64,000 nucleotides of DNA from Opitutia bacterium (GTDB taxonomy: Bacteria > Verrucomicrobiota > Verrucomicrobiia > Opitutales > JABJCN01). The notes under the pieces are model-generated. The model was not told where the DNA came from and did not search any database. It worked only from the letters and a program-made list of their open reading frames with translations. A program made the position numbers and the translations under genes. The stretch spans positions 9,032 to 73,031 of the forward strand of contig JABJCN010000092.1 of NCBI GenBank assembly GCA_018668635.1, written 5' to 3'. Shown here piece after piece: positions 1-39,808 of the stretch; position 1 is the first letter of the stretch; each line of letters starts with the position of its first letter.

Positions 1-3000
1 CCATTCAAGCTGGAAAGCGATATCATTAGTTTTGTTGCTCCAACCCGGGCAATTCTAGCCTCTGCACCCACGTTCCCTCCATTGCTTCCCGGTCAACGTA
101 TCTGGATTACAGGATCCACCAGTAATAATGGCATTTATACCGTCTCCCGCGATGTAGTGGCAACCGACCAGCAGATTATCATTGAAGAAGCCCTTTTGGA
201 TGAAACTGCCGGGAATCTTGTTACCATTGCCAGCGCTGGAGCCCAGCTTCCTGAAATGGATACGGATGCTGATGGATTAACTGATTTTTATGAGGAACAG
301 CTTGGGCTTGACCCTGGTCAGGATACTGATGGAGATGGTGTGCTCGATGACAGTGATGGTGACGGCAATCCCGATGGTTGGGACTCCGATGGTGACGGTC
401 TTCCTGATGGATGGGAGGTTCTCACCGGCCTTACCGTATTTGCCAATGATATCCATATGGCCAATAACAAGGTGTATTCAAGTTCCGCCATTGAACTCAC
501 TGGGTTGACTGATGTCTCATTTGACTCAGCGACCAGAAGTATTCGTAGTTCTCAAGGCTCACTTAGTGATACCAATCAACCGGCTTTCATCGCTGGCCAG
601 AAGGTTATCGTATCCGGTTCAGGTCTCAATAGCGGAACCTACACAATTGTTGCAGCAAACTCTATTCAGATAACGGTTGCCGAGGAGGTTCAAGATGAAA
701 AAGCCGGACGCGCGCTCTCTATTTCAAGCATTGGTGGCTCAAATCTATCTGTCTTTTCTGCAGGCACCACCTTGGAGGTCAAAGGCTTCACAAATATTGG
801 TAATTTCGGTATCGAGTCTTCAAGCGAAAACACCATTCAAGTCGTTGGAAATTTAGCCGATGAACCTACGGGTACTTTTGATCCCAATGATGAGTCCGCT
901 TATCGAGGCTGGATTACACTTTTTGCAAATGATACCGAGGGTGACTCTGATGGAGACCTTCTTTCCAATAAGGAGGAGTTTCTCGGTGCTGACGACAAGT
1001 CTTCTGGTTACAACGATTATCTGATCCCGGATCGCCTGTTCGATGGCGACTGGACACACCCCGTATTTAATGATACTGATGGAGACACCATTGATGATGG
1101 CTGGGAGATTCGATATGGTCTCGATCCAAACCAAAGCAATGGTCTTCTTGGAAGTGACATTGGTTTTCGCGACAATCGCGTCCGCTCCATTTCCAGCTTG
1201 GTCGTCAGTGGCCAGAATATTCGTTTTGATGGAGCTAGCAGTCGCATCCTATCATTGACTAATGAATTTATACTTCTTCGTCAGTGCCGTCAGGTTACAA
1301 TCATTGGCTCCGATAGCAACGACGGCTCATTTCCCATTATTGATATTGGAGTGGCTGGAGATTACATGGAAGTTGCGCCCGCTGCAAGCGGAGCGGTTAT
1401 TGTGGATGAAAAAGAGGGCCGACCTATCATGGTACATGGAGACCTTGAGATCCTGAGTAATGATATAAGCTTTAATGGGAATACCATAAGCTCTTCTCCA
1501 ACTACCGTTACAGGTAATGACATCTTTTTCACTGCAGCAGGTGAAATCCGTAACCTCGGGGGACAGTCTATTATGGGGGATGACATATCTTTCTCCGGGA
1601 CCACAATTCGTAGTCATAATGGGCACTTTTCTAGTGGAACGGATGACATATCCTTTGATGCGGCAACATCTGAAATTCGATCGCAGGTGGGCATCCTTAA
1701 TGGATATGCTGTGGGTTATCCCATCCTGGTGGCTGGTTCTGCGAATAACAATGGTTTGTTCATCGTGCAGTCTGTGCCTGTTCCGGGGTTCACCGTGGTT
1801 GTTAATGGCCCCCTCCAGGATGAAGGAGCCCAAAATGGCGGAAATAATCCTCAGCCCAAGGTCATTACCATTACCGCCATCGGGGGCACAGACCTTTCGA
1901 GTTTTATCTCCGGCTATCAAGTACAGGTTTTCGGATCTCTCTTTAATGATGGCATATATACCGTGACTGGAACACCCACTTTCCCCACGAATACGTTGGA
2001 CGTTGGCCAGCTACTTTTCACTGAGAGCAATGGAGCGTTTGTTGACATTTCTTATGCCGATACTTCCAGCTTTTCGAACTTCCGTGCCGGTCAGTCGATT
2101 ACTGTTACTGGTTCCGTTACCAATAATGGCACCTATACGATAGGCAACGCCTTACCCTCGGCGAACCTGATACAACTTGCTGCCACTGGCCCTGCCATTG
2201 TTGCCGAACCAGCCAATCCATTTACTGCAGTCACCCTGACTGCGCAAGGCGTCACAGACTTTTCCCGCTTTTCCCGGGGGGCACAAATTCAAGTTAATGG
2301 CACTTCCTTAAACGATGGCATTTACAATATTTCAAACGATATCGCACCGACTGCCAGCCAGATCCAAGTTGTTGAGCCTCTAACGCTTGAGGCTTCCGGT
2401 CCTGATCTTGAAATCTTTCAGCTTGGGCCTTCTTCCCGTCTGGATGCCTTTAATGATAATGAAAATGTTCTTATCAATGGCTCCTTAGGCAATGATGGCA
2501 CATTTATCATTGATACTAATGGTGTGAGCCCATCCACACTATTTGCTTTACCACCAAAATTATTTGCCTCGGAAGCAGCAGGTTCTCAAATTACAATATC
2601 CAAGGATCTCGATAGTGATGGTCTCCCTGACGTTGTTGAGTATCATTATAATTCCAACCCCAATCTTCGGGATACCGATGCTGATGGTGACACGGACATG
2701 GATGAAACTGGTGGATTCTTTGGTGGCAGTGATCCAACCGACCCTGATTCCGTCCTGCGATCCATTAATGGCTTGGTCAGATATAGTGGCATCGAGACGG
2801 GCAACATCTACATCCAGGTCGATGAGGCGAACCGCCCTTTTGAAGAAAACGACACCGGTGATACCATTCCCTCGGATCTTTATTTCACCAACAAAGACCG
2901 CACAATTCATTCTTCTACCGGAAAATTACCTTACCTTACCGTTGGACGACAAATCCTGATTTCTGGTACAAATGATGGGGATGGTGATGGGGTGGGGGAC

Positions 3001-6000
3001 AACGATGGTGTCTTTACGATTTCCAAGATTATTGCCTCAAAATATGCCATTGAGGTTGACGAGGAGCTTGTTGATGAGGGGACAATTGATGAAGATGGAG
3101 ACGGGGTTCCCGATGGGGTCTCTGTCTCAGCCACCGTACTTGGATATGACCCCATCCTTGTACCGCTTTCGCTGGGAGAGAGGGCCTACTCCATCAACGG
3201 GCTTGCCTCCGATCACTTGATCACGATTACCGCTTTCCTGGATGCAAATGGTAATGGTGGTCTTGATGAGTTTGCCGATCCCAATGGCCAATACAATAGC
3301 GGCAATCCCGTTGAGGTCGGTAAATCCGGTCGCTTTAATCTAAACCTTGACTTGGAACAGACGAGTTTGGCCATCGACAGTGTCACCACGGAGGAGATTG
3401 ATGGGGGGTATTACCACACCGTAATCTGGAATAGTGTCCCGGCGAAGCAATATCGTGTCCTTTATTCAACCTCCACCCCTGCCGGGCCATATGGCACCTA
3501 TGTCCCGGCTGCGAATGGCCTCCCGGTTGTCATCACAGGTCGTGATGCCCCCGTGGTGAACCCCGGGGACGATCCGCCAAAGACATCCCTTGTGCATTTC
3601 ACGGTGGAATCCCCTGTCTGGTATCGTGTGGAAATGGTTAATGCCTTTGGGGAGGGTGTTCCTGAGACTGATACAGATGGCGACGGCCTCACAGACTATC
3701 ACGAGGGGCAACTGAAACTCGACCCCGAAAACCCTGACGTTGATGAGGATGGCATGCCGGATGGCTGGGAGGTCTTGACCGGGCTCACAGCTTACGGCAA
3801 CGACCTGACCTTGGATGGAGACACCGGCAAGATTCTTTCCATTGCAGGTCTCATCACGGAATCAACCACTATTGGTTTCGATTTGGCCTCCAGGAAAATT
3901 AGTTTCAACAATGGCATGCCGGCTTTTATCGTTGGCCAGCAAATCACTGTAACAGGCTCCAAGGTTAATGATGGTACTTACACAATTTCAGAAGTCGCTA
4001 CAGATTCCACCTTCATTGTCGTGAAGGAAAGTCTAAACACGGAAACTGCTGGTGCTACAGTCACTGTTGCAAGCTTTGGAGGGACTGACCTCTCTGTATT
4101 TCAGGATGGAGCCATTTTGGTGATCAAGGGAACCACTGCGCAATTGTACGACGGAGTTTATAAGGTGATTGGTGCATCAATGACCCATGAGGCACAATTA
4201 TCAACAGTCGCCGGAGGCTTACCTTCCTTCCAGAACGGAAATGGTCATCCTGCTGAGCCCGGTATCTGGCTGACCCTTTACGCAACAGATTCCGATGCCA
4301 ATCCGGATGGTGATGGATGGGAAGATGTGGACGCATCAGGGAATCCAATTTGGCATCAGTATACAAATATTGAAGAATACCTTGGCGCGGACCAGACTCT
4401 CTCTATTTTCCGTAAGGAGCTTCTCCCAACCCGTATTTTCGACGGTGACTGGACGCACCCCAATAGTGTCGACACAGATATGGATGACATTGATGATGGG
4501 TGGGAGCGTCGATACGGATTGGACCCCAGTTCCCTCAACGGGACATTCGGTTCAGACCTCTCCTTTAAAGGCTCGCAGGTACGTTCAGTTGAAAGCATCT
4601 CTATTTCGGGTGAGAACATCAGTTTTGACGCGGCCACGCGCCGCATAAATTCTCTTTCATCATCCTTTCTTGCCTTCTCCAACTCGCAGTGGATCACGAT
4701 TACGGGCTCCGGGTTCAATGATGGGGTTTATGAGATTGAGTCAGTGTCCCAGTTTGGTGAGTTCATCACAGTTACTCCAGCCCATACACTTATAGAAGAA
4801 GTAAAGGGGGCAGATATATACATTCGCGCTGATCGGGAAAAAACAGGAACTGATATCAGCTTTAATGGTAATACAATTCGTGCTTCACGGACAACCGCCA
4901 GCGGTAGCGACATCCATTTTGATGATACCGGCTTTATCCGAAGTTTGGCTAACCAGAATGTTCAAGGCACTGACTTGGTCTTCGCACTAAACGAAGTCAA
5001 ATCTCACTTTGGACTAACGACTGGGTTCATTGTGAATGATATCAGTTTTGATGCAGCTTCACAGCAGATCAGTTCTCTAGCTGGTATTTTTCCGGATTTC
5101 GTTGTTGGGCAGCAGATTTTTGTCAATGGCTCCAATAGCAATGATGGTTTTTATACCCTTGCAGGTATTCCTGTTCAGGGCTCGATCTTACAGGTCAACG
5201 AGGCGCTAATTGACGAGGCTCGTCAAAATGTTGCCGGAGGGGGAGGGCCTGCTCCGCCTAAGATTATAGCAGTTGCCAGTGTAGGCGGCACGGATCTTTC
5301 TGGATTTCCCGGCGGGTTCCAAGTTCAGATTATGGGTTCTACTTTCAATGATGGTAATTTTACCCTGATTGCCCCTTCTTCCCAAAACCTATTACAGTTC
5401 GCTACTGCCATGCTCAATGAGCCTGCAGGAGCCAATACTGGGATTTCAGTATTAAACAGCACCAACCTGTCCGGGTTTGAGCTTGGTCAGCAGATTATTA
5501 TTACCGGCTCGACCCTGAATGATGGCACCTATCAAGTTTCCAATGCTGTGGCGCCAACTGCAGGTGCCATAGCGATTCAATTTGATCCACTGAACCCCTT
5601 GCAACTGCAAAATGAACCACCGTTGGTTACCCGTGCGCCCACAGTTGCCGCTGCAACTAATACCAATCTCTCCATGTTCACAAGGGGTGGCACGCTTGTG
5701 GTATCAGGTACGGCTTTCAATGATGGCACCTATCACATAAATCCCTTTATTGACCCAACTGCTGACACCATACAGGTCCAGGAAACCTTCATCAATGAGC
5801 CAATGGGCCCATCCACAACCATTTTGCAGACTGGTGCCACTGACCTATCCGGGTTTTTAGATAATACCACCATACTTGTTTCAGGTTCTTTTCTCAATAA
5901 TGGAGTCTACACAATTGCCAAGGATGGGGTTTCGCAGCATGCACTCACCTTTGCACCTTCCGGAATCTTTGCGGGATTTCTCCGTGAACCGGCTGCAGCA

Positions 6001-9000
6001 GACATTTCCATATCCCGGGACTCCGACAACGATGGTCTGCCCGACGTACTCGAATTCAACTACAAGACAAACCCATCCGAGCCTGACTCAGATGGTGATG
6101 GCGGCACCGATATTGCCGAGGTAAGTGGTCATTTTGGAGGCAGTGACCCCACTGATTCCACTTCTGTATTAAGTTCCATTGTTGGCACGATCATCTACGA
6201 AACCAATGAGAACGGCATCTTTTACGTCAGCCTCACGCCTGTGGCCGAGGGAATCAATGATCTCATGTTCAATAGTGCTGACCGCACCATTTCCTCTGCT
6301 TCAGGCCGCCTGCCATCTCTTATGGCCGGGGACATTCTTGAGGTTACAGGGACGGCATCCAATAATGGTCCTTTCACCGTTCTGGAAGTTGTGGCTCCTC
6401 ACACAACATTAAAGGTGATCGAGTCAATCTTGGATGAGTCTCCAGCTGATACCACAGTTATGGGACCACCCCTGCTTGTCTCCCTCCCGCCAAACCAGCG
6501 TAGTTTTGCCATCACAAATCTGCCTTCCGATGTCCATGTTCTTCTCGAGGCGTTCCTTGACTCAAACGGAAACGCTGAGCGCGATGATTTTATCGACCCA
6601 TCCGTTACCTACAATGGGGGCAAACCTCTCTTGGTTGGTCCTGGTGGTCGCTATAACATCGTCTTGGACCTTTCCCTTACTCCCCTGCGGATTCACCCAG
6701 ATGAAGTCGATGTAAAGGGGGTGGTCACAAAGGAAGATGAAATTACCGGCGGGTACCACCACACCATAACTTGGAAAAGTGTGCCGGGTAAGATTTATCA
6801 GGTCCGTTATTCGACAGCAACTCCGGCAGGTCCCTTTTCTCATTATGTGACTGCTCGGACAGGTTTGGCTGAGCAAGTCATCGGTAAGGCTGGAGGCGAA
6901 ACCACAAGCCTCATCCATTTTTCCACCCACCGCGATGTGTTTTACCGCATTGAACAACTGAATGCAGATGGTACTTTAACTCAAGAAGCGGACTCTGATG
7001 GTGATGGCCTGACAGATTACTACGAAGAAGCCCTTTTACTGGATCCTTTCACGCAGGATGTTGACCTTGATGGAATGCCAGATGGTTGGGAAGTTCTGAC
7101 TAAAATAACTACTCATGCAAGAGATATTCGGTTCAATGGCAGTACAATTACGTCTGTTTACAGCCTAACCTCGGCAAACAAGTCCGACATCTCTTTTGCA
7201 GGTAATATTATTTCAGCAACCTCCACCGAATTCCCCGAATTTCTCGCCGGTCATCAACTATTAATCACTGGTTCAGGCAAGAACGACGGTACCTATATTC
7301 TTGAGTCTGTTTCTGACGACCGGAAGACCCTGACCTTGTCGGGCACACTTGAGCAGGAAGTTGCCGGGGCTACGGTTACTATTTCCAGTGTCGGTGGAAC
7401 CAACCTTTCCATTTACCCGGCGGGAATTATTCTGAACGTCAAGGGCTCCACCAATACGCTCAATGATGGAATCTTTGAGGTCAAGGTCTCATCTGCAAAT
7501 CAATTAAATATGGTCAACGCCACTAATGGTACAGATCACGTTTTCATTTTAGAAGATCAAGATCCTGAGGCGCCCCACTATATTACCCTTTTTGCTTCTG
7601 ATGCTGACATTGACGCAGATATCGATGGATTATCCAACCTTGAGGAGTATCTTGGTGCGGACATCGAGGGGTCAACCTTCGATCCAGGGTTGCTTGCGGC
7701 CCGTGTCTTTGATGGTGATTACACCAACGCCACCGAGTTGGATACTGATGCAGACACGATGGATGATGGCTGGGAACGCAAGTATGGACTAAACCCGAAC
7801 GCGCTCAATGGTGTCTCGGGCACAGACCTCGGCTTTCGCGGACTCCAGATAAAGTCTATCAGCAGTATTCCAGTTTCTGGTCGTGACTTTACCTTTAACA
7901 GCGCGACAAATCGCATCACTGCTCTTTCAACCTCTCTCAGTAGCCTTCAACACGCACGCCAGTTAACTATTTTGGGCTCTGGCACAAATGATGGAACCTA
8001 TACGGTACTCTCTGTTGACACTGCAGGTGCCTTTATTGATATTCACCCCTCAACCCCAATTGCCATTAACCAGAAGGAGGGTAACTATGTGACCATACTT
8101 GGTGACAGGGAAATTCTTGGTAATGATATCTCATTGGATAGTTTTTCTATTCGGTCCACTCCCACTCAAGTTACAGGGAAGGATATTCATTTTGATTCTG
8201 CTGGGTTTATACGGTCCCTACTCGGTGTATTTGTTGAGGGACAGGATATCGGTTTTGTCGGCAACCAGATCAGTTCTCACTTTGGCCTGACCACAGGTGC
8301 GGTTGATGATGATATTTCTTTTGACTCTGCCACCAGCGAGATTCGCTCGGCTGGAGGTAACCTGCCTAATTTTGTCAACGGGTTTCAGATTCAGGTAGCC
8401 GGTTCCAACTTCAATAACGGCACCTTCACGGTTGTATCAACGATTACCTCTGGCTTTACTATTCAGGTTGCTGAGGCTCTTTTTGATGAGCCAGCCACTA
8501 ATAACCTTCTTCCCGGAGCAGCCAAAACCGTTACGATTGACTCCATTGGTGGCACTGATTTTTCATCAATTCCAAGCGGGTTTGAAATTTTTATATCAGG
8601 AAGTGGCGTTAATGATGGCGTCCAGACCGCTGCCATTTCCACTAGTAATATCCTTACGGTACTCAGTGGATTTATTTCCGAGGCAGCCGGTGCAAATGTC
8701 AGAATTGAGATTTCTCAACCTACAGATTTTAGTAATTTCCGAATTGGGCAGGAGATAGCAATTTCAGACAGTCGGCGTAATGATGGTGATTACATAATCG
8801 GTTCAGTTTCGCCAAATATGCTCAAAATTCAGTTTAATCCCACAATTCCTTCGCCTCTTTTCAATGACCCGGCAAATGTCTTGACTGAAGCTTCAGTCAC
8901 CGCCGTTGTCTTTAGTGACCTTTCCACATTCCAGAAAGGAGAATTCTTACAACTCAACGGTTCCACTGATAATAGTGGAGTTCTCCGCGTAAGCCCATTT

Positions 9001-12000
9001 TTTAACCCTACTCCAGACGAATTACAAGTACTTGATCTATTGGTCTCGGAGCCCATTGGATCGGATCTTGAATTCTTTCAACTTGGGCATACTGATTTAT
9101 CTGGTTTTAATGATGGTGACATCGTTTTGGTAGCCGGATCAATTGCCAATAATGGAATTTACACCCTTGCTCAAAATGGCGTTACAGGTCATGGGCTGAC
9201 TTTTAAAATGGCACCACCTTTTGCTGGGTTCGTCACCGAGTCTGCCGGTTCACTCGTTTCCATTTCCAAGGATCTCGACAATGATGGTTTATCCGATGTG
9301 TTGGAATATGTTTTCAAGAGTAACCCCACAATTGCTGATACCGATAATGACGGAGATTCTGACCTTGCTGAAACCAATGCCCGTTTTTATGGCAGCGACC
9401 CACAAAATAATGCCGTTCTCCTCACTTCTTTGAATGGAACAATTGAACACGCCCTACCTTATGAAGGCGCCGATCGCGGCACTGTTTATGTTGTAGTACA
9501 AGAACAGACCAGTGTTCATCAAGTTGGCGACCTTCAGTTTTCTGCCCAAGATAATTCTATTACCTCCACGGAGAGTAAATTACCATTTCTCGTCGCTGGT
9601 CGTAAGATCACGATTGCGGGTTCCTCCGCCACTGCAATTGGCACTGATATAGAATTTATTGGCAATACCATTAAGTCCTCAAACACCTTGATCCCCTCAT
9701 CCCTCTTACCTGGGCGTCAGGTTCTTATTTCTGGTTCAGGTGATAATGACGGCATTTATACAGTTGGTGCCGGAGGTGTTTCCTTGGATGGTAAAACTCT
9801 TACATTAACTGAGAGTTTAACCAATGAGGATAAGGGGTCTGAAGTATCCGTGGCCACTATTTATACAGTCGCGTCAGTTATCACCCCGGGAACAAAAATA
9901 ATTGTTAGCGACAACTTAGCGGATGAATTGCCATCAGATTGTTCCTTTAACATTTTGCCTGCTGCTCCGGAGATTGTTACTCTTCCCGTTGGTGTCTTGA
10001 GTTATTCTGTTGATGGATTGCCTAGTGGGTCAACTGTTTCAATACATGCTTATCTAGATGCAGACAAAGATGGTGAATATGATGCATTTGTCGATCCGTA
10101 TGGTGAATACAGTGCCCCGATTACCCTAGGCAAGTCTCCGCGTTACAACCTCAACATTACCCTTCGACAGAGCGATCTTACTCTGGCCAATGTCTCGCCA
10201 TTGACTTCCGCAACTAATGGGTTTGCGAATGCAATTACATGGAATTCGATCCCTGGAAAGATTTATCGTATCCTTTATTCAGATCATTCACCTGCTGGCC
10301 CTTATGATAAATATGTCGAGTCCCTGACCGGATTCCCTCAGGAAATTATCGGTCGCTTTCCTGATCCAATTAGCGGAATAAGCCAAACCTACATTGTTCA
10401 TATTTCTGAGCATAAGGACACATGGTATCGCCTCGAGATGATATCTGAGGATCGCCGCACCGTTACTTCTGAAGTTGATTCAGATAGTGATGGCCTTACC
10501 GATTACCACGAAAATAATATGGGTCTTGACCCTCAAGTCTTTGATTCTGATGGCGATTCTTTACCTGATGGTTGGGAGACATATACCGGACTGACCACTC
10601 ATGGTTCAGATATTTCGTTCACCGCACCAGGTACCATTCGGTCCATTGCCGGGTTACAGGTTACTGGAACTGACTTAAAGTTCATTGCTAACACTGGTGT
10701 TATTCAAGCCACGGCCAACTCTGTGGACTTCTCTGACTTTATTGCAGGGCAGAAAATTTCAATAACTGGATCTCTTCGTAATGACGGCACCTATTCGATT
10801 TTAGAAGAGCCGACGACCTCGACTATTACTGTTCAGGAACAAATCTATGACGAGGATGGCCCTCTCAGTGGTGTCTTAGTTGCCAGTGTTGGAGGAACTA
10901 ATTTGTCCGTCTTCCCAGCTGGCGCGGTGCTAACCATCATTAACTCGGCCCGAAACGATGGCACGTACAAAGTGTCCAGCGAGAATACTGTTTCCTCACA
11001 TACGCTTGTTCTCGAGAGCGATACCCTTGTAGCTGAAACTCATGATGAGAGTTCCGGAAGCATTACGATTTATGCCAGTGATAAGGATGCTGATCCAGAT
11101 GGAGACGGGTTAACAAATCTACAGGAATTTCTGGGTCCCGATGGTGAGGTGCCTTCATACGATTACGCCCTCGTTACGACCACTTTATTCAGTGGAGACT
11201 GGTCGCACCCTGTGAAGTTTGATACTGATGGAGATGGTATCGATGATGGCTGGGAAGTTGATTATGGCCTAAATCCCAATAAAATTGATCAATTGAGCGG
11301 AAAAGACATTAGCCTCCGTGGAGATCGAGTTTTTTCCATGGCAAACATTGAGGTATCTGGAGTTGATATCTCCTTGGACCACGATATGAACCGCCTCCTT
11401 TCTACATTTCCTCATTTTAAGGACTTTAGCAAGGGCCAGCTTATTCGTATTGAAGGAACCAACAGTAATGATGGCAGTTATCATATTAAATCTGCTAGGC
11501 CAAACGAAATTTACCTAGAAGAACCATTGACAGATACTGAACCTGCCGGGTCTAAGATTGTCACCATTATAGCAGATATCTCCATTACCAGTTCGAATCT
11601 CGCCATTGATGAGAACTCTATCTACTCCGCCACCACATCAGCAGAGGGTGGAGATATTACGTTTAGCCGAGATCGTGTGCAGTCTCTACACGACTATGCC
11701 GTCACCGGTACCGATCTTATTTTTCGAGATAAGCAGATCACCTCCACTTCCGGGCTTAAATATCTGGTTCATGAGGCGGCCCCGAGACTTTTTGCCCTGC
11801 GCGGGGCAGAAATGACCACCGAGGACGGTCTTACACTTAATTTTGTGGAAAACCAAAGGCTCATCATGCGTAATCTCACGGTACCTTTCGTTGATTATTT
11901 TTCTGTCCGCAGAGTGCAGTTTGGTGGGGAAAAAATAACCTTTAACACGGCTCCGCCCTTCAACCAATCCCCACAAAACATTGAGTGGACGGAGATTTTC

Positions 12001-15000
12001 ACTGAGCCCGGCACCGGCACTGATCTCTCCCTGCTTGTGCCAGGTTTGCAGATTCAGGTCAGCGGGTCACAGTTCAATGACGGTGTCTACACAATTTCCG
12101 ACATTGAGTACGGTCGGGACCGCTGGGTGGCGGAAGACCCATTTGGCCAGCAACGTGCACCGGAAGGCACCCTTGATTATTCATTGGATAATAATAATAC
12201 GACCACAGTCCTGACTGTCGATACCCCAACATTATTTAACGATGAGGCAACTGGCCGAGAGATTACCATTACTGTACTCAATGGTACAGACCTTGCTGAG
12301 TTTCGGACCAAGCAGGAATTCGAGGTTTCTGAATCCTATTCCAATAACGGCGTCTACACGGTCTCGGATGCAGTCATCCCCACGTCCAATCAAATGGTTG
12401 TTCATGATCACATCTTTAAGGAGGAACCACGCTTGCTGGCCACGGATCTCCTCGTTGACGATATTTCATTTCAGCCTGTCGGAGAAGTTGCAGGGAATCC
12501 CTTGGTCCCCCAAGATGGCACTCTTATTGCCAGGCACCCTGTTTTTGATGTTGTCACCAGTCCTATTCGCTTCAGTCAGTCAGACTTGGAGGCAGGTGGG
12601 CGTGGTCGTCGCCTTAATGTAATCGAATGGTCGACAAACCTCCTTGCAATCAGTGATCCTGACCCAGCTACTGACTTCGACGATATTTACTTTCAGAATG
12701 GTGATGTTATCAGTGGTACCTTTGAAGTTTTTCCAGCCGATCCAATCTTGATGATTCCGGCTGTAACAGAACCCCGGATTTATGTGGTAGTTGGTGTTGC
12801 GCCTATAACCGACCCACTTAATTCTCCAGACTTCACAACTTTTGTTAATAATACCAATGCTATCTTGCCGGGTGCCCTTGTGCAAATTCTCAACTCTACA
12901 GGTCCGGTTACCACCGTGTTTGAGCCGAATGCTGGGCGGTACGAATTGGGCGAAGTCGTGTATGATGATACTGACGGTAATTACTACATGGCTTTTGCTG
13001 GACCAACCACTGCTGCCGCTGGCTGTACTGAAATATCTACCGAATGGATACCTCTTGGCCCAACACCACCTCACATGGGTGTTGCAGATGAATTTTCATC
13101 ACTTGTAAGCTATGATCCTGGTGCCCTTGTTCAGTTTGAGAATCACATTTATGTCGCGTTGGAGGAGTTAAGCCTCAACCAGGGCACGCCGACCGAGAAT
13201 ACAACCTCGTGGATCGAGCCCAGCTTATACATGACCAGCAGCCTGATCCTTTCCCACACAGGCGCCATTCCAAAGTTGGTTGCAGGAACCAAGATCAACG
13301 TATATGTTCAAGGGGATGGCGCCAATGTTGACCACGGTGGCTCGTGGGTGGATTGGCCACTATGGGCGCTTGGCGACCCAGACCCCAATGCTAAAAGTTT
13401 CACGGTCAAGAATTTTATCAGTCCATTCATGATTGAGGTGGAGGAATCGGTAATCGAGCACGATAGATTCCATGACGATGTATTTACGTGGTTCTTTGAT
13501 CCTTTAAGTGGCGATCTAATACCGTTTTTAGCGGATCCGCAACCGCCCCGTAATATCAGGCTCTTTGTAAACTCTTATTCCACCGGGCAAAACCCGCAAG
13601 CCAAGCTTGACCTGGTTCGCATTGATCTCTCGGCCTTCCAGCCTGGTCAAAAGCTCACCATCATTGATTCCTCCAAAAACAATGGTGTGTACACAATCTC
13701 TGATGAGGCAGTTGCAGTTGCAGATCGTGTTTATCTACAGGAACCGCTTTACATTGAGAACGATGGGTCAAATGCCACCATATTCCAGTCCGGCGCGACA
13801 GATCTCTCCGGGTTCTCCTTTGGAAGTAAGTTTATCTTGGGAGGTAGTGATCAAAATGATGGCAAATTTACGGTTAACTCCATCAAACCCAACAGTTCTA
13901 TTGTTGATGTATCACGTGTTTTTACCCAGGAAGAAGTGGATGCTGGGATCACCACTGCGTTGGCAACCGAGGCCACAGGGAGAAACATCACCATGGGCAT
14001 TGATACAGATGATGACAGTTTGTCCAACAACCAGGAATATACTGGTGCAGATGGTATTTCCCCCAACAATCCTGGAGATAGTTCAGATGCAACCGCTCCC
14101 ACTTTGTCTGATTTCGATAGGGATGGATACGCTGACGATGTTGAGCGGGGTGGCTATTTTGGCGGCAGTAAAGCTTGGGACATTAATTCGATTCCATCCT
14201 CAATTTCGGGAAAAATCAATTATACAGGCACGCTTGATGGCGAGGTAATTCTAAGGATACTGGAGGGCAATGATCCCAATCCTGCTGCACCGAATGATAT
14301 CAGTTTTACTTCAGAGGGAAGCATCATTCGCTCCTCAAGTGGTAGCCTCCCATTGCTTTTACCTGGTGAAAAACTACATATACAAGGTACCATACTAACC
14401 TACATTCCATTTAATTCAAATGGCATTAATACCTCCTACACCGTTAAGGAGGTTGTCACGCAAGGCAGTGAGATTACCGTTGAGGAAGCATTGATTGACA
14501 CCCCTCTTCCAACAGAAGGACTTGTTTTCCTTCAGCTTTGGGGTACGCCTGAGTTGTTAGAGCTTAACCTGGGTGCATCCGGCCCCTATACGGTGTCTGG
14601 TCTTCCATCACACAAGAGTTACATTGTTGATGCATTTCTGGATGTTGGAATAAAGGTTGCCAGCAGCAATCTCACATTCGACCCAGACACGGGGACAATT
14701 ACAGCTAACACCGACCTTTTCACGGAATTTGCTATCGGCCAGACCATCCGGGTTACTGGAAGTGAGGCGTTACCGATCAATGATGGTTCTTATACTCTTA
14801 CCGCGGTCACTGGAACCACTCTGACTGTTGCAGAAACAATTACAACAAGGGAGGAGCCCGGATCTTATATTATCATCCAGGGACTGGGTAACGGGGTTTA
14901 CGATGATCAGGCGGAACCTTATGGCAGCTATATTTTCCCTGCATCAGGTGGTGCCATCCAGTTGGTTTCCGGCATTATACCGATAAGCCACCTCAATAAT

Positions 15001-16968
15001 ATCAATATCGAGCTGACTCTTCCGGAACCCAGTATTTTCGATATTATACCGGATGTGGCCAATGGCAAAAATACTGTCAAGTGGAACAGCATTGCCGGTA
15101 AGACTTATCGCATCCTCTATTCTAATATTAATGCTGTTGGTCCTTACAATTATGTTAAGACTCTGGCTGCTCAAATTGATATAGACAGTCAGCGCGCCAC
15201 CCTTGATGGCCAACCTTTTGAGTGGGATCTTAATAATAACGGCATTATTGATCCTGGTGAGGATATCAACGAGAACGGCGTTCTTGATACCCCGGGTCCT
15301 GGTGATACGATTGATCTTGCTGTAACGACCGTTGAGGGTCAGAGCATCGCTTTGGTGGAGCATTTTATTGAAGGGGATGTCTGGTATCGTGTCGAGATGG
15401 AGAATGGCACCTATGATATACCCGAACAGGATACAGATGCTGACGGGCTCTCCGATTTCTACGAGAATCTGGACACTGCCAAGGGGGGCTTTGGCACGGT
15501 GTTTGATGTCTATGACAGTGACGGTGATGGCATGAGCGATGGTTGGGAAATCTTTGTTGCCCTTGATCCTCTTGATGAATCAGATGCTTCGGTTGACGCG
15601 GATGGTGACGGTCTCAGTCACCTTGAGGAATATATGGGAGGCGACAAGGTGCCTGCTGCCTACGATTACACTCGAATCCTAACGGACGTTTTCTCGGGTG
15701 ACTGGACTTACAGTTGGAACAACAACTTCTGGGCGCCTGCGAACAATCCCGAAGTCAATCATCGTACCCTTCTACCTGCTGATACACCCGATACTGACTT
15801 TGACGGGTTTCCCGATGGTGCTGCTGACCCACGGGATTCTGATAGCGATCCCAATAATCCAGGAATGCGTGACGGGTGGGAGGTCATGTACAGCCTTAAT
15901 CCCAATTTCAACGATCGTGAAAGTGATCCCGATAACGATGGTTGGGACCATGATGGCAATGGACTGGTTGAGAGCACTGAACTCTATTCTAACATTGAGG
16001 AATACTTGGGTAAGGATGGAGGTGCGCCGGTGTTGGACACTGCCAACGGTCTACTTCTTTCCAATGGTGCTGTTTTCACCGGGGACCATACAAATCCACA
16101 GGATCCTGATAGCGATTTGGACAGTTACCTTGACGGACGCGAAGCCGATATCATGGAGGGTGTCCTCTTTGGGGGGAGTGATCCCAATGACCCAACATCC
16201 ACCCTCATGCATTTTACCGGCAGTCTCACAAGCCCCAACGGCCCGGACAACCTTCGTCTCGCTATCTCAGATGATACGACGATCCCGGCTGGTGATGTCA
16301 TTTCCGGTGTCGGTGCAATCTACAAGATCGCAGATGTACCCACCGGCAATTACGTGGTATATGCATTTGAAGACAAAAATGCCAACGGAAGCTGGGATAA
16401 CGACACCACGGAGCCAGCCCGGTCCCTCGGTGGTCACGGTAACCCGACCAAGGCCAGTACAGTTTCATTCGCAGCCGGTAGCCCCGTGGTAATTCTTGAT
16501 TTTGAGCTGGATGCAGCATTTGTGGACGACTCTGTTGCCCCAACCTTTGCCGAATGGGCGGTCACCGAAGGCCTTACAGGGAAGGGGAGTGCGGCCGAAC
16601 TTGATGCAGATGGCGATGGTATCCCCAACTTTGTGGAGTTTGCTGCCAACACAGGGCCCCTTGACCCCGATAGCAAACCGGAGGCAACCTTCCACTTCGA
16701 GAACACCCTCGGCGGATTGCTTGAGGCAGAGGAACCCGGCTTTCGCATGATGACCGTTTCCCACCCGTGGAACGGCGTCCTTGCCGGTCAGGTAGCCTAT
16801 GAAATCCAGGTCTCCGAGGACCTCAACCTGGGCTGGAGAACCCTGACACCTGGCGATGGTTTACTCCAGAGTCTTTCCCTCCACGGTGACCGTATCGAGG
16901 CCAAAATCCGCTGTGCCGATGTCAATAGAACCACCTTCACCCGTTTTGTATTTAAGGAGGCCAAATAA
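1..16968 (+). CDS. Giant Ca-binding (thrombospondin type-3-like) repeat protein, probably cell-surface or extracellular; 5' end lies outside the window (at least 5655 aa visible)
   Basis: Frame 1 has no stop from nt 1 to the TAA at 16966-16968. Nt 1-81 translate to PFKLESDIISFVAPTRAILASAPTFPP, which continues the internal repeat pattern, so the ORF-track TTG at 82 is not the true start. The protein has many DxDxDGxxDxxE motifs (DTDGDGLTDYHE, DSDGDGLPDGWE). I count about 36-38 copies by eye of a GQxIxIxGSxxNDGxYTV module. There are four Fn3-like YR[VI]LYS..PAGPY...WYRxE modules. Confidence 0.9.
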   Translation, partial: PFKLESDIISFVAPTRAILASAPTFPPLLPGQRIWITGSTSNNGIYTVSRDVVATDQQIIIEEALLDETAGNLVTIASAGAQLPEMDTDADGLTDFYEEQLGLDPGQDTDGDGVLDDSDGDGNPDGWDSDGDGLPDGWEVLTGLTVFANDIHMANNKVYSSSAIELTGLTDVSFDSATRSIRSSQGSLSDTNQPAFIAGQKVIVSGSGLNSGTYTIVAANSIQITVAEEVQDEKAGRALSISSIGGSNLSVFSAGTTLEVKGFTNIGNFGIESSSENTIQVVGNLADEPTGTFDPNDESAYRGWITLFANDTEGDSDGDLLSNKEEFLGADDKSSGYNDYLIPDRLFDGDWTHPVFNDTDGDTIDDGWEIRYGLDPNQSNGLLGSDIGFRDNRVRSISSLVVSGQNIRFDGASSRILSLTNEFILLRQCRQVTIIGSDSNDGSFPIIDIGVAGDYMEVAPAASGAVIVDEKEGRPIMVHGDLEILSNDISFNGNTISSSPTTVTGNDIFFTAAGEIRNLGGQSIMGDDISFSGTTIRSHNGHFSSGTDDISFDAATSEIRSQVGILNGYAVGYPILVAGSANNNGLFIVQSVPVPGFTVVVNGPLQDEGAQNGGNNPQPKVITITAIGGTDLSSFISGYQVQVFGSLFNDGIYTVTGTPTFPTNTLDVGQLLFTESNGAFVDISYADTSSFSNFRAGQSITVTGSVTNNGTYTIGNALPSANLIQLAATGPAIVAEPANPFTAVTLTAQGVTDFSRFSRGAQIQVNGTSLNDGIYNISNDIAPTASQIQVVEPLTLEASGPDLEIFQLGPSSRLDAFNDNENVLINGSLGNDGTFIIDTNGVSPSTLFALPPKLFASEAAGSQITISKDLDSDGLPDVVEYHYNSNPNLRDTDADGDTDMDETGGFFGGSDPTDPDSVLRSINGLVRYSGIETGNIYIQVDEANRPFEENDTGDTIPSDLYFTNKDRTIHSSTGKLPYLTVGRQILISGTNDGDGDGVGDNDGVFTISKIIASKYAIEVDEELVDEGTIDEDGDGVPDGVSVSATVLGYDPILVPLSLGERAYSINGLASDHLITITAFLDANGNGGLDEFADPNGQYNSGNPVEVGKSGRFNLNLDLEQTSLAIDSVTTEEIDGGYYHTVIWNSVPAKQYRVLYSTSTPAGPYGTYVPAANGLPVVITGRDAPVVNPGDDPPKTSLVHFTVESPVWYRVEMVNAFGEGVPETDTDGDGLTDYHEGQLKLDPENPDVDEDGMPDGWEVLTGLTAYGNDLTLDGDTGKILSIAGLITESTTIGFDLASRKISFNNGMPAFIVGQQITVTGSKVNDGTYTISEVATDSTFIVVKESLNTETAGATVTVASFGGTDLSVFQDGAILVIKGTTAQLYDGVYKVIGASMTHEAQLSTVAGGLPSFQNGNGHPAEPGIWLTLYATDSDANPDGDGWEDVDASGNPIWHQYTNIEEYLGADQTLSIFRKELLPTRIFDGDWTHPNSVDTDMDDIDDGWERRYGLDPSSLNGTFGSDLSFKGSQVRSVESISISGENISFDAATRRINSLSSSFLAFSNSQWITITGSGFNDGVYEIESVSQFGEFITVTPAHTLIEEVKGADIYIRADREKTGTDISFNGNTIRASRTTASGSDIHFDDTGFIRSLANQNVQGTDLVFALNEVKSHFGLTTGFIVNDISFDAASQQISSLAGIFPDFVVGQQIFVNGSNSNDGFYTLAGIPVQGSILQVNEALIDEARQNVAGGGGPAPPKIIAVASVGGTDLSGFPGGFQVQIMGSTFNDGNFTLIAPSSQNLLQFATAMLNEPAGANTGISVLNSTNLSGFELGQQIIITGSTLNDGTYQVSNAVAPTAGAIAIQFDPLNPLQLQNEPPLVTRAPTVAAATNTNLSMFTRGGTLVVSGTAFNDGTYHINPFIDPTADTIQVQETFINEPMGPSTTILQTGATDLSGFLDNTTILVSGSFLNNGVYTIAKDGVSQHALTFAPSGIFAGFLREPAAADISISRDSDNDGLPDVLEFNYKTNPSEPDSDGDGGTDIAEVSGHFGGSDPTDSTSVLSSIVGTIIYETNENGIFYVSLTPVAEGINDLMFNSADRTISSASGRLPSLMAGDILEVTGTASNNGPFTVLEVVAPHTTLKVIESILDESPADTTVMGPPLLVSLPPNQRSFAITNLPSDVHVLLEAFLDSNGNAERDDFIDPSVTYNGGKPLLVGPGGRYNIVLDLSLTPLRIHPDEVDVKGVVTKEDEITGGYHHTITWKSVPGKIYQVRYSTATPAGPFSHYVTARTGLAEQVIGKAGGETTSLIHFSTHRDVFYRIEQLNADGTLTQEADSDGDGLTDYYEEALLLDPFTQDVDLDGMPDGWEVLTKITTHARDIRFNGSTITSVYSLTSANKSDISFAGNIISATSTEFPEFLAGHQLLITGSGKNDGTYILESVSDDRKTLTLSGTLEQEVAGATVTISSVGGTNLSIYPAGIILNVKGSTNTLNDGIFEVKVSSANQLNMVNATNGTDHVFILEDQDPEAPHYITLFASDADIDADIDGLSNLEEYLGADIEGSTFDPGLLAARVFDGDYTNATELDTDADTMDDGWERKYGLNPNALNGVSGTDLGFRGLQIKSISSIPVSGRDFTFNSATNRITALSTSLSSLQHARQLTILGSGTNDGTYTVLSVDTAGAFIDIHPSTPIAINQKEGNYVTILGDREILGNDISLDSFSIRSTPTQVTGKDIHFDSAGFIRSLLGVFVEGQDIGFVGNQISSHFGLTTGAVDDDISFDSATSEIRSAGGNLPNFVNGFQIQVAGSNFNNGTFTVVSTITSGFTIQVAEALFDEPATNNLLPGAAKTVTIDSIGGTDFSSIPSGFEIFISGSGVNDGVQTAAISTSNILTVLSGFISEAAGANVRIEISQPTDFSNFRIGQEIAISDSRRNDGDYIIGSVSPNMLKIQFNPTIPSPLFNDPANVLTEASVTAVVFSDLSTFQKGEFLQLNGSTDNSGVLRVSPFFNPTPDELQVLDLLVSEPIGSDLEFFQLGHTDLSGFNDGDIVLVAGSIANNGIYTLAQNGVTGHGLTFKMAPPFAGFVTESAGSLVSISKDLDNDGLSDVLEYVFKSNPTIADTDNDGDSDLAETNARFYGSDPQNNAVLLTSLNGTIEHALPYEGADRGTVYVVVQEQTSVHQVGDLQFSAQDNSITSTESKLPFLVAGRKITIAGSSATAIGTDIEFIGNTIKSSNTLIPSSLLPGRQVLISGSGDNDGIYTVGAGGVSLDGKTLTLTESLTNEDKGSEVSVATIYTVASVITPGTKIIVSDNLADELPSDCSFNILPAAPEIVTLPVGVLSYSVDGLPSGSTVSIHAYLDADKDGEYDAFVDPYGEYSAPITLGKSPRYNLNITLRQSDLTLANVSPLTSATNGFANAITWNSIPGKIYRILYSDHSPAGPYDKYVESLTGFPQEIIGRFPDPISGISQTYIVHISEHKDTWYRLEMISEDRRTVTSEVDSDSDGLTDYHENNMGLDPQVFDSDGDSLPDGWETYTGLTTHGSDISFTAPGTIRSIAGLQVTGTDLKFIANTGVIQATANSVDFSDFIAGQKISITGSLRNDGTYSILEEPTTSTITVQEQIYDEDGPLSGVLVASVGGTNLSVFPAGAVLTIINSARNDGTYKVSSENTVSSHTLVLESDTLVAETHDESSGSITIYASDKDADPDGDGLTNLQEFLGPDGEVPSYDYALVTTTLFSGDWSHPVKFDTDGDGIDDGWEVDYGLNPNKIDQLSGKDISLRGDRVFSMANIEVSGVDISLDHDMNRLLSTFPHFKDFSKGQLIRIEGTNSNDGSYHIKSARPNEIYLEEPLTDTEPAGSKIVTIIADISITSSNLAIDENSIYSATTSAEGGDITFSRDRVQSLHDYAVTGTDLIFRDKQITSTSGLKYLVHEAAPRLFALRGAEMTTEDGLTLNFVENQRLIMRNLTVPFVDYFSVRRVQFGGEKITFNTAPPFNQSPQNIEWTEIFTEPGTGTDLSLLVPGLQIQVSGSQFNDGVYTISDIEYGRDRWVAEDPFGQQRAPEGTLDYSLDNNNTTTVLTVDTPTLFNDEATGREITITVLNGTDLAEFRTKQEFEVSESYSNNGVYTVSDAVIPTSNQMVVHDHIFKEEPRLLATDLLVDDISFQPVGEVAGNPLVPQDGTLIARHPVFDVVTSPIRFSQSDLEAGGRGRRLNVIEWSTNLLAISDPDPATDFDDIYFQNGDVISGTFEVFPADPILMIPAVTEPRIYVVVGVAPITDPLNSPDFTTFVNNTNAILPGALVQILNSTGPVTTVFEPNAGRYELGEVVYDDTDGNYYMAFAGPTTAAAGCTEISTEWIPLGPTPPHMGVADEFSSLVSYDPGALVQFENHIYVALEELSLNQGTPTENTTSWIEPSLYMTSSLILSHTGAIPKLVAGTKINVYVQGDGANVDHGGSWVDWPLWALGDPDPNAKSFTVKNFISPFMIEVEESVIEHDRFHDDVFTWFFDPLSGDLIPFLADPQPPRNIRLFVNSYSTGQNPQAKLDLVRIDLSAFQPGQKLTIIDSSKNNGVYTISDEAVAVADRVYLQEPLYIENDGSNATIFQSGATDLSGFSFGSKFILGGSDQNDGKFTVNSIKPNSSIVDVSRVFTQEEVDAGITTALATEATGRNITMGIDTDDDSLSNNQEYTGADGISPNNPGDSSDATAPTLSDFDRDGYADDVERGGYFGGSKAWDINSIPSSISGKINYTGTLDGEVILRILEGNDPNPAAPNDISFTSEGSIIRSSSGSLPLLLPGEKLHIQGTILTYIPFNSNGINTSYTVKEVVTQGSEITVEEALIDTPLPTEGLVFLQLWGTPELLELNLGASGPYTVSGLPSHKSYIVDAFLDVGIKVASSNLTFDPDTGTITANTDLFTEFAIGQTIRVTGSEALPINDGSYTLTAVTGTTLTVAETITTREEPGSYIIIQGLGNGVYDDQAEPYGSYIFPASGGAIQLVSGIIPISHLNNINIELTLPEPSIFDIIPDVANGKNTVKWNSIAGKTYRILYSNINAVGPYNYVKTLAAQIDIDSQRATLDGQPFEWDLNNNGIIDPGEDINENGVLDTPGPGDTIDLAVTTVEGQSIALVEHFIEGDVWYRVEMENGTYDIPEQDTDADGLSDFYENLDTAKGGFGTVFDVYDSDGDGMSDGWEIFVALDPLDESDASVDADGDGLSHLEEYMGGDKVPAAYDYTRILTDVFSGDWTYSWNNNFWAPANNPEVNHRTLLPADTPDTDFDGFPDGAADPRDSDSDPNNPGMRDGWEVMYSLNPNFNDRESDPDNDGWDHDGNGLVESTELYSNIEEYLGKDGGAPVLDTANGLLLSNGAVFTGDHTNPQDPDSDLDSYLDGREADIMEGVLFGGSDPNDPTSTLMHFTGSLTSPNGPDNLRLAISDDTTIPAGDVISGVGAIYKIADVPTGNYVVYAFEDKNANGSWDNDTTEPARSLGGHGNPTKASTVSFAAGSPVVILDFELDAAFVDDSVAPTFAEWAVTEGLTGKGSAAELDADGDGIPNFVEFAANTGPLDPDSKPEATFHFENTLGGLLEAEEPGFRMMTVSHPWNGVLAGQVAYEIQVSEDLNLGWRTLTPGDGLLQSLSLHGDRIEAKIRCADVNRTTFTRFVFKEAK
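253..3663 (+). repeat. Super-repeat 1 of the giant protein (about 1137 aa)
   Basis: The unit starts at EMDTDADGLTDFYEEQLGLDP and ends after the Fn3-like module YRVLYSTSTPAGPYGTYV...WYRVEMVN. The same domain order recurs in the next three units. Confidence 0.75.
3664..6984 (+). repeat. Super-repeat 2 (about 1107 aa)
   Basis: The unit starts at ETDTDGDGLTDYHEGQLKLDP and ends after YQVRYSTATPAGPFSHYV...FYRIEQLN. It is collinear with unit 1 at protein level but heavily diverged at DNA level. Confidence 0.75.
6985..10470 (+). repeat. Super-repeat 3 (about 1162 aa)
   Basis: The unit starts at EADSDGDGLTDYYEEALLLDP and ends after YRILYSDHSPAGPYDKYV...WYRLEMIS. Confidence 0.75.
10471..15423 (+). 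repeat. Super-repeat 4, expanded to about 1651 aa by a non-repetitive insert
   Basis: The unit starts at EVDSDSDGLTDYHENNMGLDP and ends after YRILYSNINAVGPYNYV...WYRVEMENG. It carries a unique region of about 390 aa (roughly nt 12430-13600) that units 1-3 lack. Confidence 0.7.
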
Positions 16969-24266: not shown

Positions 24267-25790
24267 TCAATATGCCTTGGCAAAAACGACTTGTCCTTCA
24301 CTAGGTTTGCCTGTGAATGGGCAAGTACCCGGTTCACCCGTACGCTCTTCTGGTATGCAACGAATTGAGACTTTCAGATCCTTCTGAAGGCGATCCTCGG
24401 CTTCTGTGTCATGCGCCCAGTGGGCCTTGGCAAAGCCCCCATGGATTTCATTGGTGTCTTTATCTTTTGGTGTGAAGAAGTCGTAAAAGTCTTCCTTGTT
24501 GTCGATACTGCATGTATTGGCCTCGCGAAAGTCTTTTGCCCGTTGGTGCAGGTTGTCTTGAATTTCCTGAAGCACAGAGGACATTGAATTTATGAATTCC
24601 GTTCTTGGCATACCTTTGCGTTCCTGGGGACCATTGTCCCTCCGCCCGACGAACACAGAGTCGCTTTCGAGGTCGCGAGGGCCAACTTCCACCGTTAGCG
24701 GAATGCCTTTCTTGACCCATTGCCACATCTTTTCACCACCACGTAGGTCGCGATCATCGAATTCAACACGTATGGGTTTCCCATCAAATGTCAGGTCACG
24801 GATTTCGCGGGCAAGCTTGTCGCAATGCTCCAGGACCTGGTTTCTTGTTTCTTCTTTCGGGGTTACTGGCAGGATGACAACGTGGGCAGGAGCCAATCTT
24901 GGAGGACAAACCATGCCATTATCATCCGCATGACTCATGATAAGTCCACCAACAAGCCGGGTCGATACTCCCCAGGAGGTTGTCCATGCGTGTAGCTTTT
25001 GACCCTCCTTATCGAGATATTGGATATTGCTGGCCTTTGAGAAATTTTGGCCAAGAAAATGTGATGTGCCGGCCTGCAAAGCCTTGCGATCCTGCATCAT
25101 GGCTTCAATCGAATAGGTATTCAATGCCCCCGGGAAGCGTTCTCCCTCAGTCTTCTCTCCCTTGATTACAGGCATGGCCATGTAGCTTTCTGCAAAATCG
25201 GCATAGAGATCGAGGATGAGTCGTGTTTCCTCCATGGCTTCTTCGCTACTGGCATGAACCGTGTGACCTTCCTGCCAAAGAAATTCTGCCGTGCGGAGAA
25301 AAAGTCGGGTTCGCATTTCCCACCGGACTACATTTGCCCATTGGTTTATCAATAAGGGAAGATCGCGGTAGGATTGGACCCACTTGGCAAAGAGTTCGCC
25401 AATTATTGTCTCTGATGTTGGCCGGACAATAAGGGGTTCCTCAAGTGGTCCAGCCGGAGTCAGTTGGCCATCTTCTCCTGCCTCCAGCCTCGAGTGTGTG
25501 ACCACGGCGCATTCCTTGGCGAAGCCCTCCACATGCTCCGCTTCACGTTGCATGAAACGAAGCGGAATAAATAGAGGGAAATATGCATTCTTGTGTCCGG
25601 TTGCCTTGAACCTGGCATCCAGCTCGGACTGGATGTTTTCCCAGAGTGCATAACCCCATGGCTTTATAACCATGCATCCACGTACCGGAGAGACTTCCGC
25701 AAGGTCTGCTGCGCGAATTACCTGTTGATACCATTCCGGGTAATCTTCAGAGCGAGTTGGGTTTATGGCGGTTTTTGCTTTCTTGGACAT
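24267..25790 (-). CDS. proS: Prolyl-tRNA synthetase, archaeal/eukaryote-like type
   Basis: 507 aa. The N-terminus is PTRSEDYPEWYQQVIRAADLAEVSPVRGCMVIKPWGYALWENIQ. Class II motifs are present and the protein ends in Y, as this ProRS subtype typically does. Confidence 0.92.
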   Translation of the reverse strand: MSKKAKTAINPTRSEDYPEWYQQVIRAADLAEVSPVRGCMVIKPWGYALWENIQSELDARFKATGHKNAYFPLFIPLRFMQREAEHVEGFAKECAVVTHSRLEAGEDGQLTPAGPLEEPLIVRPTSETIIGELFAKWVQSYRDLPLLINQWANVVRWEMRTRLFLRTAEFLWQEGHTVHASSEEAMEETRLILDLYADFAESYMAMPVIKGEKTEGERFPGALNTYSIEAMMQDRKALQAGTSHFLGQNFSKASNIQYLDKEGQKLHAWTTSWGVSTRLVGGLIMSHADDNGMVCPPRLAPAHVVILPVTPKEETRNQVLEHCDKLAREIRDLTFDGKPIRVEFDDRDLRGGEKMWQWVKKGIPLTVEVGPRDLESDSVFVGRRDNGPQERKGMPRTEFINSMSSVLQEIQDNLHQRAKDFREANTCSIDNKEDFYDFFTPKDKDTNEIHGGFAKAHWAHDTEAEDRLQKDLKVSIRCIPEERTGEPGTCPFTGKPSEGQVVFAKAY

Positions 25791-28052: not shown

Positions 28053-28061
28053 GGTTATGAG

Positions 28062-32405: not shown

Positions 32406-32420
32406 TTTTCCGTTACTTGC

Positions 32421-32444: not shown

Positions 32445-32461
32445 ACTGGTTCCTTCCGTCC

Positions 32462-39798: not shown

Positions 39799-39808
39799 TA
39801 TTTTATCC

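Follow-up and report, generated by a model that had tools for sequence, protein, structure and literature searches.

The window analyzed in this study is a stretch of 64,000 nucleotides (nt) of contig JABJCN010000092.1 (assembly GCA_018668635.1) from an uncultured Opitutae (Verrucomicrobiota) bacterium. Its left edge cuts through a giant gene of 24,921 nt and 8306 codons, of which the 5′ 7,953 nt lie beyond the window. This gene is real, conserved and 24.9 kb long, and we favor, with moderate confidence, the reading that it encodes a surface fiber carrying proteases. The part inside the window, and the start codon assigned to it by a mechanical list of open reading frames (ORFs), are located as follows.

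1-16968, + strand: 3′ two thirds of the giant gene (codons 2652-8306 and the stop), recognized from the open frame, its continuation in contig L009 and independent calls of an 8306-residue product
82-84, + strand: TTG with which the mechanical list opens the ORF; the true start lies upstream

Frame +1 runs from nt 1 to 16965 through 5655 sense codons without a stop, as an earlier note on this DNA had claimed, and terminates at 16966-16968. The remaining five frames over nt 1-16968 contain between 148 and 526 stops each, with a longest open run of 269 codons, so the open frame +1 is not due to chance. The mechanical list begins with the TTG at nt 82 and gives a length of 5628 amino acids (aa) because such a listing requires a start codon. 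This TTG (codon 28) is spanned by a complete repeat module at window aa 20-75 (i-Evalue 3.7e-19 with a hidden Markov model (HMM) derived from the internal repeats), and a ‘DIISF’ unit precedes it at aa 7-11; the 27 codons ahead of the TTG do keep the grammar of the modules, as the earlier note had read them. Its position inside a module and the frame that stays open upstream in L009, where no stop is found just ahead of nt 82, show that the TTG is not the true start.

L009 (JGI contig Ga0209660_1000707) came from a scan of JGI metagenome contigs for which the first 400 residues served as query. It has 4505 nt in common with the window, with eight mismatches, and 10 kb of it lies upstream of window nt 1. 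The frame remains open for 2,662 codons further, until a stop is reached at L009 2012-2014. An ATG at L009 2048 lies 2651 codons ahead of window codon 1 (2651 + 5655 = 8306) and six codons 3′ of a TTG-TTG pair, which represents the earliest start codons past the in-frame stop. The expectations that the true gene extends upstream and that its N-terminal export signal was out of view are both borne out by this extension, which recovers the ATG start as well as a hydrophobic, signal-like N-terminus outside the window. The window also contains a prolyl-tRNA synthetase (ProRS) gene (24270-25790, minus strand) that occurs with identical sequence on 21 public contigs, and the 8306-residue product is called on three of these, namely ENA ERZ4201012 NODE_42 (111.6 kb) and the NCBI ‘Opitutae bacterium’ metagenome-assembled genomes (MAGs) GCA_018673815.1 and GCA_018667255.1. 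The earlier note had ranked the gene among the largest of bacteria, which was overstated, since the classes of West-Roberts et al. 2023 (10.1101/2023.11.21.568195) start at 10,000 aa (‘large’) and 30,000 aa (‘giant’) and a protein of 8306 aa belongs to neither.

Seven other assemblies match the window with 99.82-99.96% identity and no gaps. Of these, one from ENA, three NCBI MAGs and two from Logan span nt 14267-35790 or most of it, and the JGI contig covers nt 1-4505. The variants among these population assemblies split into eight synonymous and eight non-synonymous changes, the latter being below the neutral expectation, with small numbers. DNA repeats within the ORF do not exceed 97 nt and are 60-83% identical, too diverged to have collapsed during assembly; there is no sign of the repeat collapse that the earlier note had raised as a caveat. 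An orthologue in another Opitutia MAG (L007, found at 51% identity by scanning genome contigs, with 703 nt of upstream flank) is open across all 12,050 nt and aligns with the giant protein in one collinear block of 4016 residues with ~50% identity. Alignments with the super-repeats (the large repeating units described below) out of register reach 36-37%. The collinear identity is higher, which indicates that the super-repeat array predates the split of the species and that its order has been kept. In a closer relative assembled from long reads (L011), sequencing frameshifts fragment the gene, which is nevertheless collinear with residues 102-2649. Fragments in a representative protein library are 50-73% identical to defined positions of the giant protein, indicating that orthologues exist in several related species.

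The complete protein has a mass of ~890 kDa, a pI of 4.2 and only 12 cysteines. Its N-terminal third, outside the window, begins with MTRNKFRQTNLRILFQCLLFLGLLSLLVHEV, in which four basic residues are followed by a hydrophobic core of 16 residues. Only two stretches of the protein exceed a Kyte-Doolittle mean of 1.6 over 19 residues. The N-terminal one is the stronger, the other being located near residue 1009, and it could serve either as a signal that is cleaved off or as an anchor that stays in place. Pfam analysis of the N-terminal 2651 aa revealed Peptidase_S8 (PF00082; 316 bits, cut-off 21.8) in two stretches, a P_proprotein domain (PF01483; 46 bits) at aa 668-767 and TSP3_bac (PF18884) with 61.3 bits, above its gathering score. 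The earlier note had spoken of unassigned repeats and an unknown function. This holds for the repeats of the window, which remain unassigned in Pfam, and not for the part it could not see, with its two proteases and significant TSP3 repeats.

The first protease spans residues ~234-704, with the P-domain directly behind the catalytic domain and extending to ~778. Its nearest PDB structures are furin and kexin (S8B), which align over ~470 residues of catalytic and P-domain (E ~1e-50), the furin alignment reaching the end of the P-domain. The catalytic triad and the oxyanion Asn are found in the motifs VDDG/HGTS/NNSWG/GTSAS. PRDPLYPEQWHL of the giant protein aligns with PTDPKFPQQWYL, the start of mature furin, and the dibasic pair RR226-227 sits 6-7 residues ahead of this conserved PxDPxxPxQW start, at about the position of the RTKR autocleavage site of furin. 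Another dibasic pair, KR779-780, is located just past the last strand of the P-domain. Unlike furin and kexin, this convertase unit is built into the N-terminal end of a bacterial protein of 890 kDa, and its specificity and autocleavage are predictions. The second protease (residues 1651-1972) is nearest in PDB to deseasin MCP-01 (3vv3; E 1.5e-98), a secreted subtilase of Pseudoalteromonas whose whole catalytic domain is matched, with an intact triad and oxyanion Asn (IDTG/HGTH/SNSWG/GTSMA). MCP-01 itself is not part of a larger protein and carries a PKD domain at its C-terminus, whereas ~6,300 residues of repeats follow the protease here. By these motifs, both subtilases are catalytically complete. 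Regular dibasic processing sites at the borders of the super-repeats were searched for and not found.

The protein contains five super-repeats, four inside the window (~1100-1650 aa) and a shorter fifth upstream. Their ends are marked by FnIII-like ‘E’ domains terminating in WYRVE. The four in the window were delimited by anchors, module coordinates and HMM matches of the ‘D’ and ‘E’ domains.

13-3666, + strand: super-repeat 1, aa 5-1222
3667-6984, + strand: super-repeat 2, aa 1223-2328, 44% identical to super-repeat 1
6985-10470, + strand: super-repeat 3, aa 2329-3490, 43% identical to super-repeat 1
10471-15426, + strand: super-repeat 4, aa 3491-5142, longer and more divergent
15427-16965, + strand: C-terminal region of 513 residues, aa 5143-5655, with TSP3-like motifs and a DUF2141-like sandwich (sub-threshold)
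5638-5838, + strand: reference copy of the ~56-residue module, supported by HMM iteration, alignment A1 and an AlphaFold2 model

Each super-repeat combines TSP3-type motifs, ‘DISF’ hairpins, tandem modules of ~56 residues, an Ig-like ‘D’ sandwich and the E domain. In super-repeat 1 the order is a DISF unit with a module, TSP3-like DxDxDG motifs, DISF hairpins, ten modules, the D sandwich with its nested module, and the FnIII-like E domain. The D sandwich of every super-repeat carries such an inserted module and has weak similarity to DUF2141. Across the whole protein we counted 37 calcium-type DxDxDG motifs and, by regular expression, 34 units of the form ‘D-I-x-F...I-x-S’, which are modeled as beta hairpins. 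Neither Pfam nor NCBIfam gave a match above threshold in the window part; TSP3_bac reaches 17.6 and 21.9 bits on the window halves alone, below its cut-off of 25. Local similarity of the TSP3 repeats to the Myxococcus surface proteins MtsD and CglD (NF047639, NF033765) was found with E-values of 1e-9 to 1e-11, with scores of 21-44 bits against family cut-offs of 400-800, and the protein is thus not a member of these families. An AlphaFold2 model of the entire super-repeat 1 is all-beta, with a mean predicted local distance difference test (pLDDT) score of 66 and a predicted template modeling score of 0.33. The modules and hairpins reach a pLDDT of 70-89 and the TSP3 stretches stay below 50. 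Foldseek searches of this model against PDB gave only weak matches, to tandem FnIII proteins. As far as the models go, the super-repeats consist of independent small domains on linkers that are flexible and probably calcium-dependent.

Super-repeat 4 aligns with super-repeat 1 in two parts (35% identical) and has an insert of ~390 aa (aa ~4150-4540, nt 12448-13620). No module, Pfam or PDB match was found in this insert; the representative library contains one fragment (P0284) that is 40% identical to it. Two stretches of the form Y..G..V....Y.A......P.....W in the insert resemble chitin-binding motifs by eye only. Chitin-binding (CBM5/12) motifs at window aa ~4300-4450, proposed from this visual likeness, received no support from Pfam and PDB and were dropped. 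The C-terminal region has sub-threshold matches to DUF2141, TSP3 and Amuc_1099_fam (17.8 bits, cut-off 50). A common C-terminal sorting domain was considered for this region and rejected, as the local phmmer matches arise only via the TSP3-like ‘W...DADGDG..N..E’ motif.

HMM iteration counts the module (consensus GQxIxIxGSxxNDGxYTV...E) 42 times along the giant protein, with 38 of these copies inside the window, and the unassigned family that the module defines is the most original element of the protein. In super-repeat 3, one module is split by an inserted DISF unit and a complete second module (aa 3188-3313, nt 9562-9939). AlphaFold, supplied with 34 paralogous copies as alignment, models the module as a small five-stranded barrel with a pLDDT of 85.5. 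Comparison with PDB gave nothing significant by sequence profile and a best E-value of 0.73 with Foldseek, and Pfam gave no significant match. A NifZ/SH3-like identity was considered and discarded: NifZ scores 22.8-25.1 bits on long pieces (cut-off 27) and matches three of 34 single modules (best E 0.0076), below the Pfam threshold. Among predicted viral structures, the module superimposes on uncharacterized proteins of tailed phages with a TM score of 0.80 and a root-mean-square deviation of 1.4 Å, and more poorly on annotated phage fiber and tail-fiber proteins. The best E-value there is only 0.009, which is to be expected of such a small domain.

A profile of the module, compared with 1.84 billion representative proteins, matched 2998 at E ≤ 1e-3, 526 at ≤ 1e-10 and 67 at ≤ 1e-30. 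Proteins of more than 5000 residues account for 15 of the best 149 matches after the self hit; the library listed no protein above 7868 aa, nor the 8306-aa protein itself, and very long proteins thus seem to be missing from it. A word-index protein search listed nothing longer than ~2140 aa and likewise omitted the 8306-aa protein, so absence there is uninformative. The module was also found in a protein of 3021 aa that combines Big_9 with cadherin-like domains and in ~970-aa proteins with a flagellin C-terminal helix. The slot after flgK usually encodes FlgL or flagellin, and it is between flgK and flbT that we observed the flagellin-family protein P0189 (986 aa; L013:5001-7961, GCA_003354135.1) with six tandem modules. 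P0189 and P0193 carry six to seven tandem modules between conserved flagellin termini and are, like the giant flagellins (PMC6248924), flagellin-family proteins with enlarged surface domains. The module is the only element that they have in common with the giant protein, which has no flagellin termini.

Upstream of the giant gene, L009 contains the 3′ end of a secretin gene (L009:1-1275), separated from the ATG by a gap of 770 nt. The order of the upstream cluster was read in two relatives, L011 and the more distant L012. L011:3592-10846 encodes a PilM-like protein, an Amuc_1100-like protein, small genes and the secretin, followed by the orthologue of the giant gene. The cluster is the one known from Akkermansia, in which no protein of the outer membrane is as abundant as its secretin, Amuc_1098 (PMC4960237). 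A search of the 770-nt gap for riboswitches and leader RNAs gave nothing in Rfam at E ≤ 1, and promoter-like sites in it do not exceed shuffled controls. Downstream, the giant gene is followed at a distance of 41 nt from its stop by a second large gene.

17010-24230, + strand: 2406-aa protein with a signal-like N-terminus (MKLPCKLLFLSLFTLVTSVLHG) and four Big_7 Ig domains

A scan for + strand terminators between both genes found none, and they are possibly co-transcribed. Housekeeping genes, including that of ProRS, are located 3′ of the Big_7 gene. Some 10 kb 3′ of the giant gene, a row of genes (26842-29123, + strand) encodes an ECF sigma factor, a protein of 172-177 aa with no assigned family and an HtrA-like Trypsin_2-PDZ protease. 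This row looks like an envelope-stress module with the small protein as a possible anti-sigma factor. Farther on, a short flagellin gene (258 aa, Flagellin_N/C) is found next to a TonB-dependent receptor and a FUR regulator, in a neighborhood that includes 34403-35179 and 32393-34333 (both + strand). An HlyD_3 protein adjoins an AcrB-type resistance-nodulation-division (RND) pump, 35 kb off the giant gene. The cumulative GC skew has its minimum at ~36-38 kb (36000-40000) and rises thereafter in an origin-like manner, with dnaA located ~21 kb on (58875-60335).

We regard the giant protein as one of a kind of bacterial surface protein that is familiar in spite of its size and consider it reasonably likely, on balance, that it is a Sec-exported, acidic, calcium-stiffened surface fiber that carries proteases (a protease-adhesin). 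The prodomain of the convertase would be cut at RR226-227, where furin cuts its own prodomain, and the cut at RR227 would detach the exported chain from the anchor at its N-terminus. Maturation of the second protease may likewise take place just ahead of residue ~1648. The acidic repeat array would bind calcium and form a long, semi-rigid ‘beads-on-a-string’ fiber outside the cell that could present the proteases and stick to surfaces or particles. By its position only, the upstream secretin is a candidate for the outer-membrane route. The contexts of the module argue for a fiber, as its presence in cadherin/Big_9 and flagellin-family proteins and its resemblance to the fold of phage fibers point to surface-exposed settings.

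Several observations weigh against the protease-adhesin. The signal-like N-terminus has no obvious AxA cleavage site, and dibasic pairs are not enriched in the protein (13 observed, ~10 expected from composition). The extreme C-terminus, including the final ~95 aa, yielded no motif for sorting or anchoring that would account for attachment to the cell, neither in Pfam and NCBIfam, which were searched for PEP-CTERM, the type IX secretion system C-terminal domain, LPXTG and others, nor in PDB. The term ‘adhesin’ is drawn from the architecture, and our searches yielded no ligand-binding domain. The adjacency of secretin and giant gene was seen in only two genomes, which are close relatives. L012 has the pilus-like cluster (5678-11887) followed by unrelated genes and no giant gene, which makes the linkage with the secretin lineage-specific. 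Finally, MAG GCA_018663085.1 splits the gene into a partial protein of 1715 aa and one of 2998 aa, exactly at window codon 2655. This codon is TTA (7963-7965), which a single substitution turns into TAA or TGA, and the split may reflect either a nonsense variant that truly exists or an error in the consensus.

It is unlikely, though the case deserves attention, that the protein is a structural fiber of the envelope or coat (S-layer-like or a glycocalyx scaffold) with proteases that only cut the precursor and have no external substrates. Both S8 domains are located behind a prodomain-like stretch within the chain, so their maturation would necessarily cleave the giant chain itself, a role in self-cleavage has been proposed for S8 domains of giant proteins by West-Roberts et al., and our Pfam and PDB searches found no substrate- or carbohydrate-binding domain. 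Such a purely structural role is at odds with the second protease, which is nearest to the free-living, degradative MCP-01 and not to processing enzymes, and with dibasic sites that are irregular relative to the super-repeat boundaries.

The role of a contact weapon or attachment organelle directed at prey or host cells and secreted via the neighboring secretin system, as proposed for Omnitrophota giant proteins, seems quite doubtful to us. It would account for a gene located directly 3′ of the secretin in a PilM/Amuc_1100-like/secretin cluster, both here and in L011, and a similar layout, with a locus resembling a type II secretion system (T2SS) before giant genes with S8 and TSP3, has been reported in Omnitrophota. 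However, the cluster is conserved without the giant gene in L012, the gap behind the secretin contains no recognizable regulatory RNA, Pfam and NCBIfam revealed neither lytic nor toxin nor cell-wall-degrading domains, and there is no indication of a predatory lifestyle for Opitutae.

We find it rather improbable that the giant protein is a self-processing polyprotein threaded through an Amuc_1098-type secretin, with the module as an undescribed, widespread surface-decorating family. The furin-like convertase would then release the polyprotein from the inner membrane and cut it into a protease-tipped fiber, which would pass domain by domain through the neighboring secretin, and the module would be common to giant fibers, the outer domains of flagellins and phage fibers. 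If true, the enigmatic ‘pilus-like’ cluster of Verrucomicrobiota would gain a cargo.

An identity as a type I secreted RTX adhesin is effectively refuted. LapA, SiiE and MpIBP are calcium-stiffened giant RTX adhesins with a C-terminal signal for the type I secretion system and no proteases. The giant protein shares their general form, a very long acidic string of small beta domains with calcium sites between them that would build a long surface fiber. It differs in its N-terminal signal-type sequence, its domain families and its proteases; neither a match to the RTX nonapeptide/HemolysinCabind nor a recognized C-terminal secretion domain was found in Pfam, NCBIfam and PDB, and no trio of ATP-binding cassette transporter, membrane fusion protein and TolC adjoins the gene, the HlyD_3 protein being distant and next to the RND pump. 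That the long frame stems from a misassembly of the repeats, by chimerism or collapse, or belongs to a pseudogene in decay is barely conceivable: a metagenomic source, repetitiveness at the protein level and the one split MAG would allow for it, and against it stand eight concordant assemblies without indels (the window and the seven others from ENA, NCBI, Logan and JGI), short and diverged DNA repeats, orthologues from two other species that retain the order of the parts, and fewer non-synonymous changes than neutrally expected, small as these numbers are.

The closest described case of such a protease-bearing surface protein is that of the S8/TSP3 giant proteins of Omnitrophota. Proteins of at least 10,000 aa are reported to be frequent in Verrucomicrobiota, and some giant proteins of Omnitrophota have an N-terminal S8 domain and TSP3 repeats, with T2SS-like loci upstream (10.1101/2023.11.21.568195). 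Both cases fall in the Planctomycetes-Verrucomicrobia-Chlamydiae (PVC) superphylum and combine a very long, predicted extracellular protein, S8 and TSP3 domains and an upstream locus with a secretin. They differ in length (8306 aa here, at least 30,000 aa there) and in host (Opitutae); dockerin, EF-hand and discoidin domains are not significant here, the repeat is another one, the 56-aa module, and a small cluster of the Amuc_1098-1102 type is found upstream instead of a system of more than ten genes.

The giant gene does not overturn current understanding. With it, the recurring PVC pattern in which a very long S8/TSP3 protein is found beside a secretin gains a case from Verrucomicrobiota, and the module of the giant protein represents a common small beta-barrel that has so far been absent from domain databases. 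An annotation limited to the window misses the identity of the protein, as all parts with an assignable function, namely the signal, the two proteases and the significant TSP3 repeats, are in the hidden third. If the proposed protease-bearing fiber is true, these abundant, polymer-degrading aquatic bacteria could tether proteases on a calcium-stiffened leash of micrometer scale.

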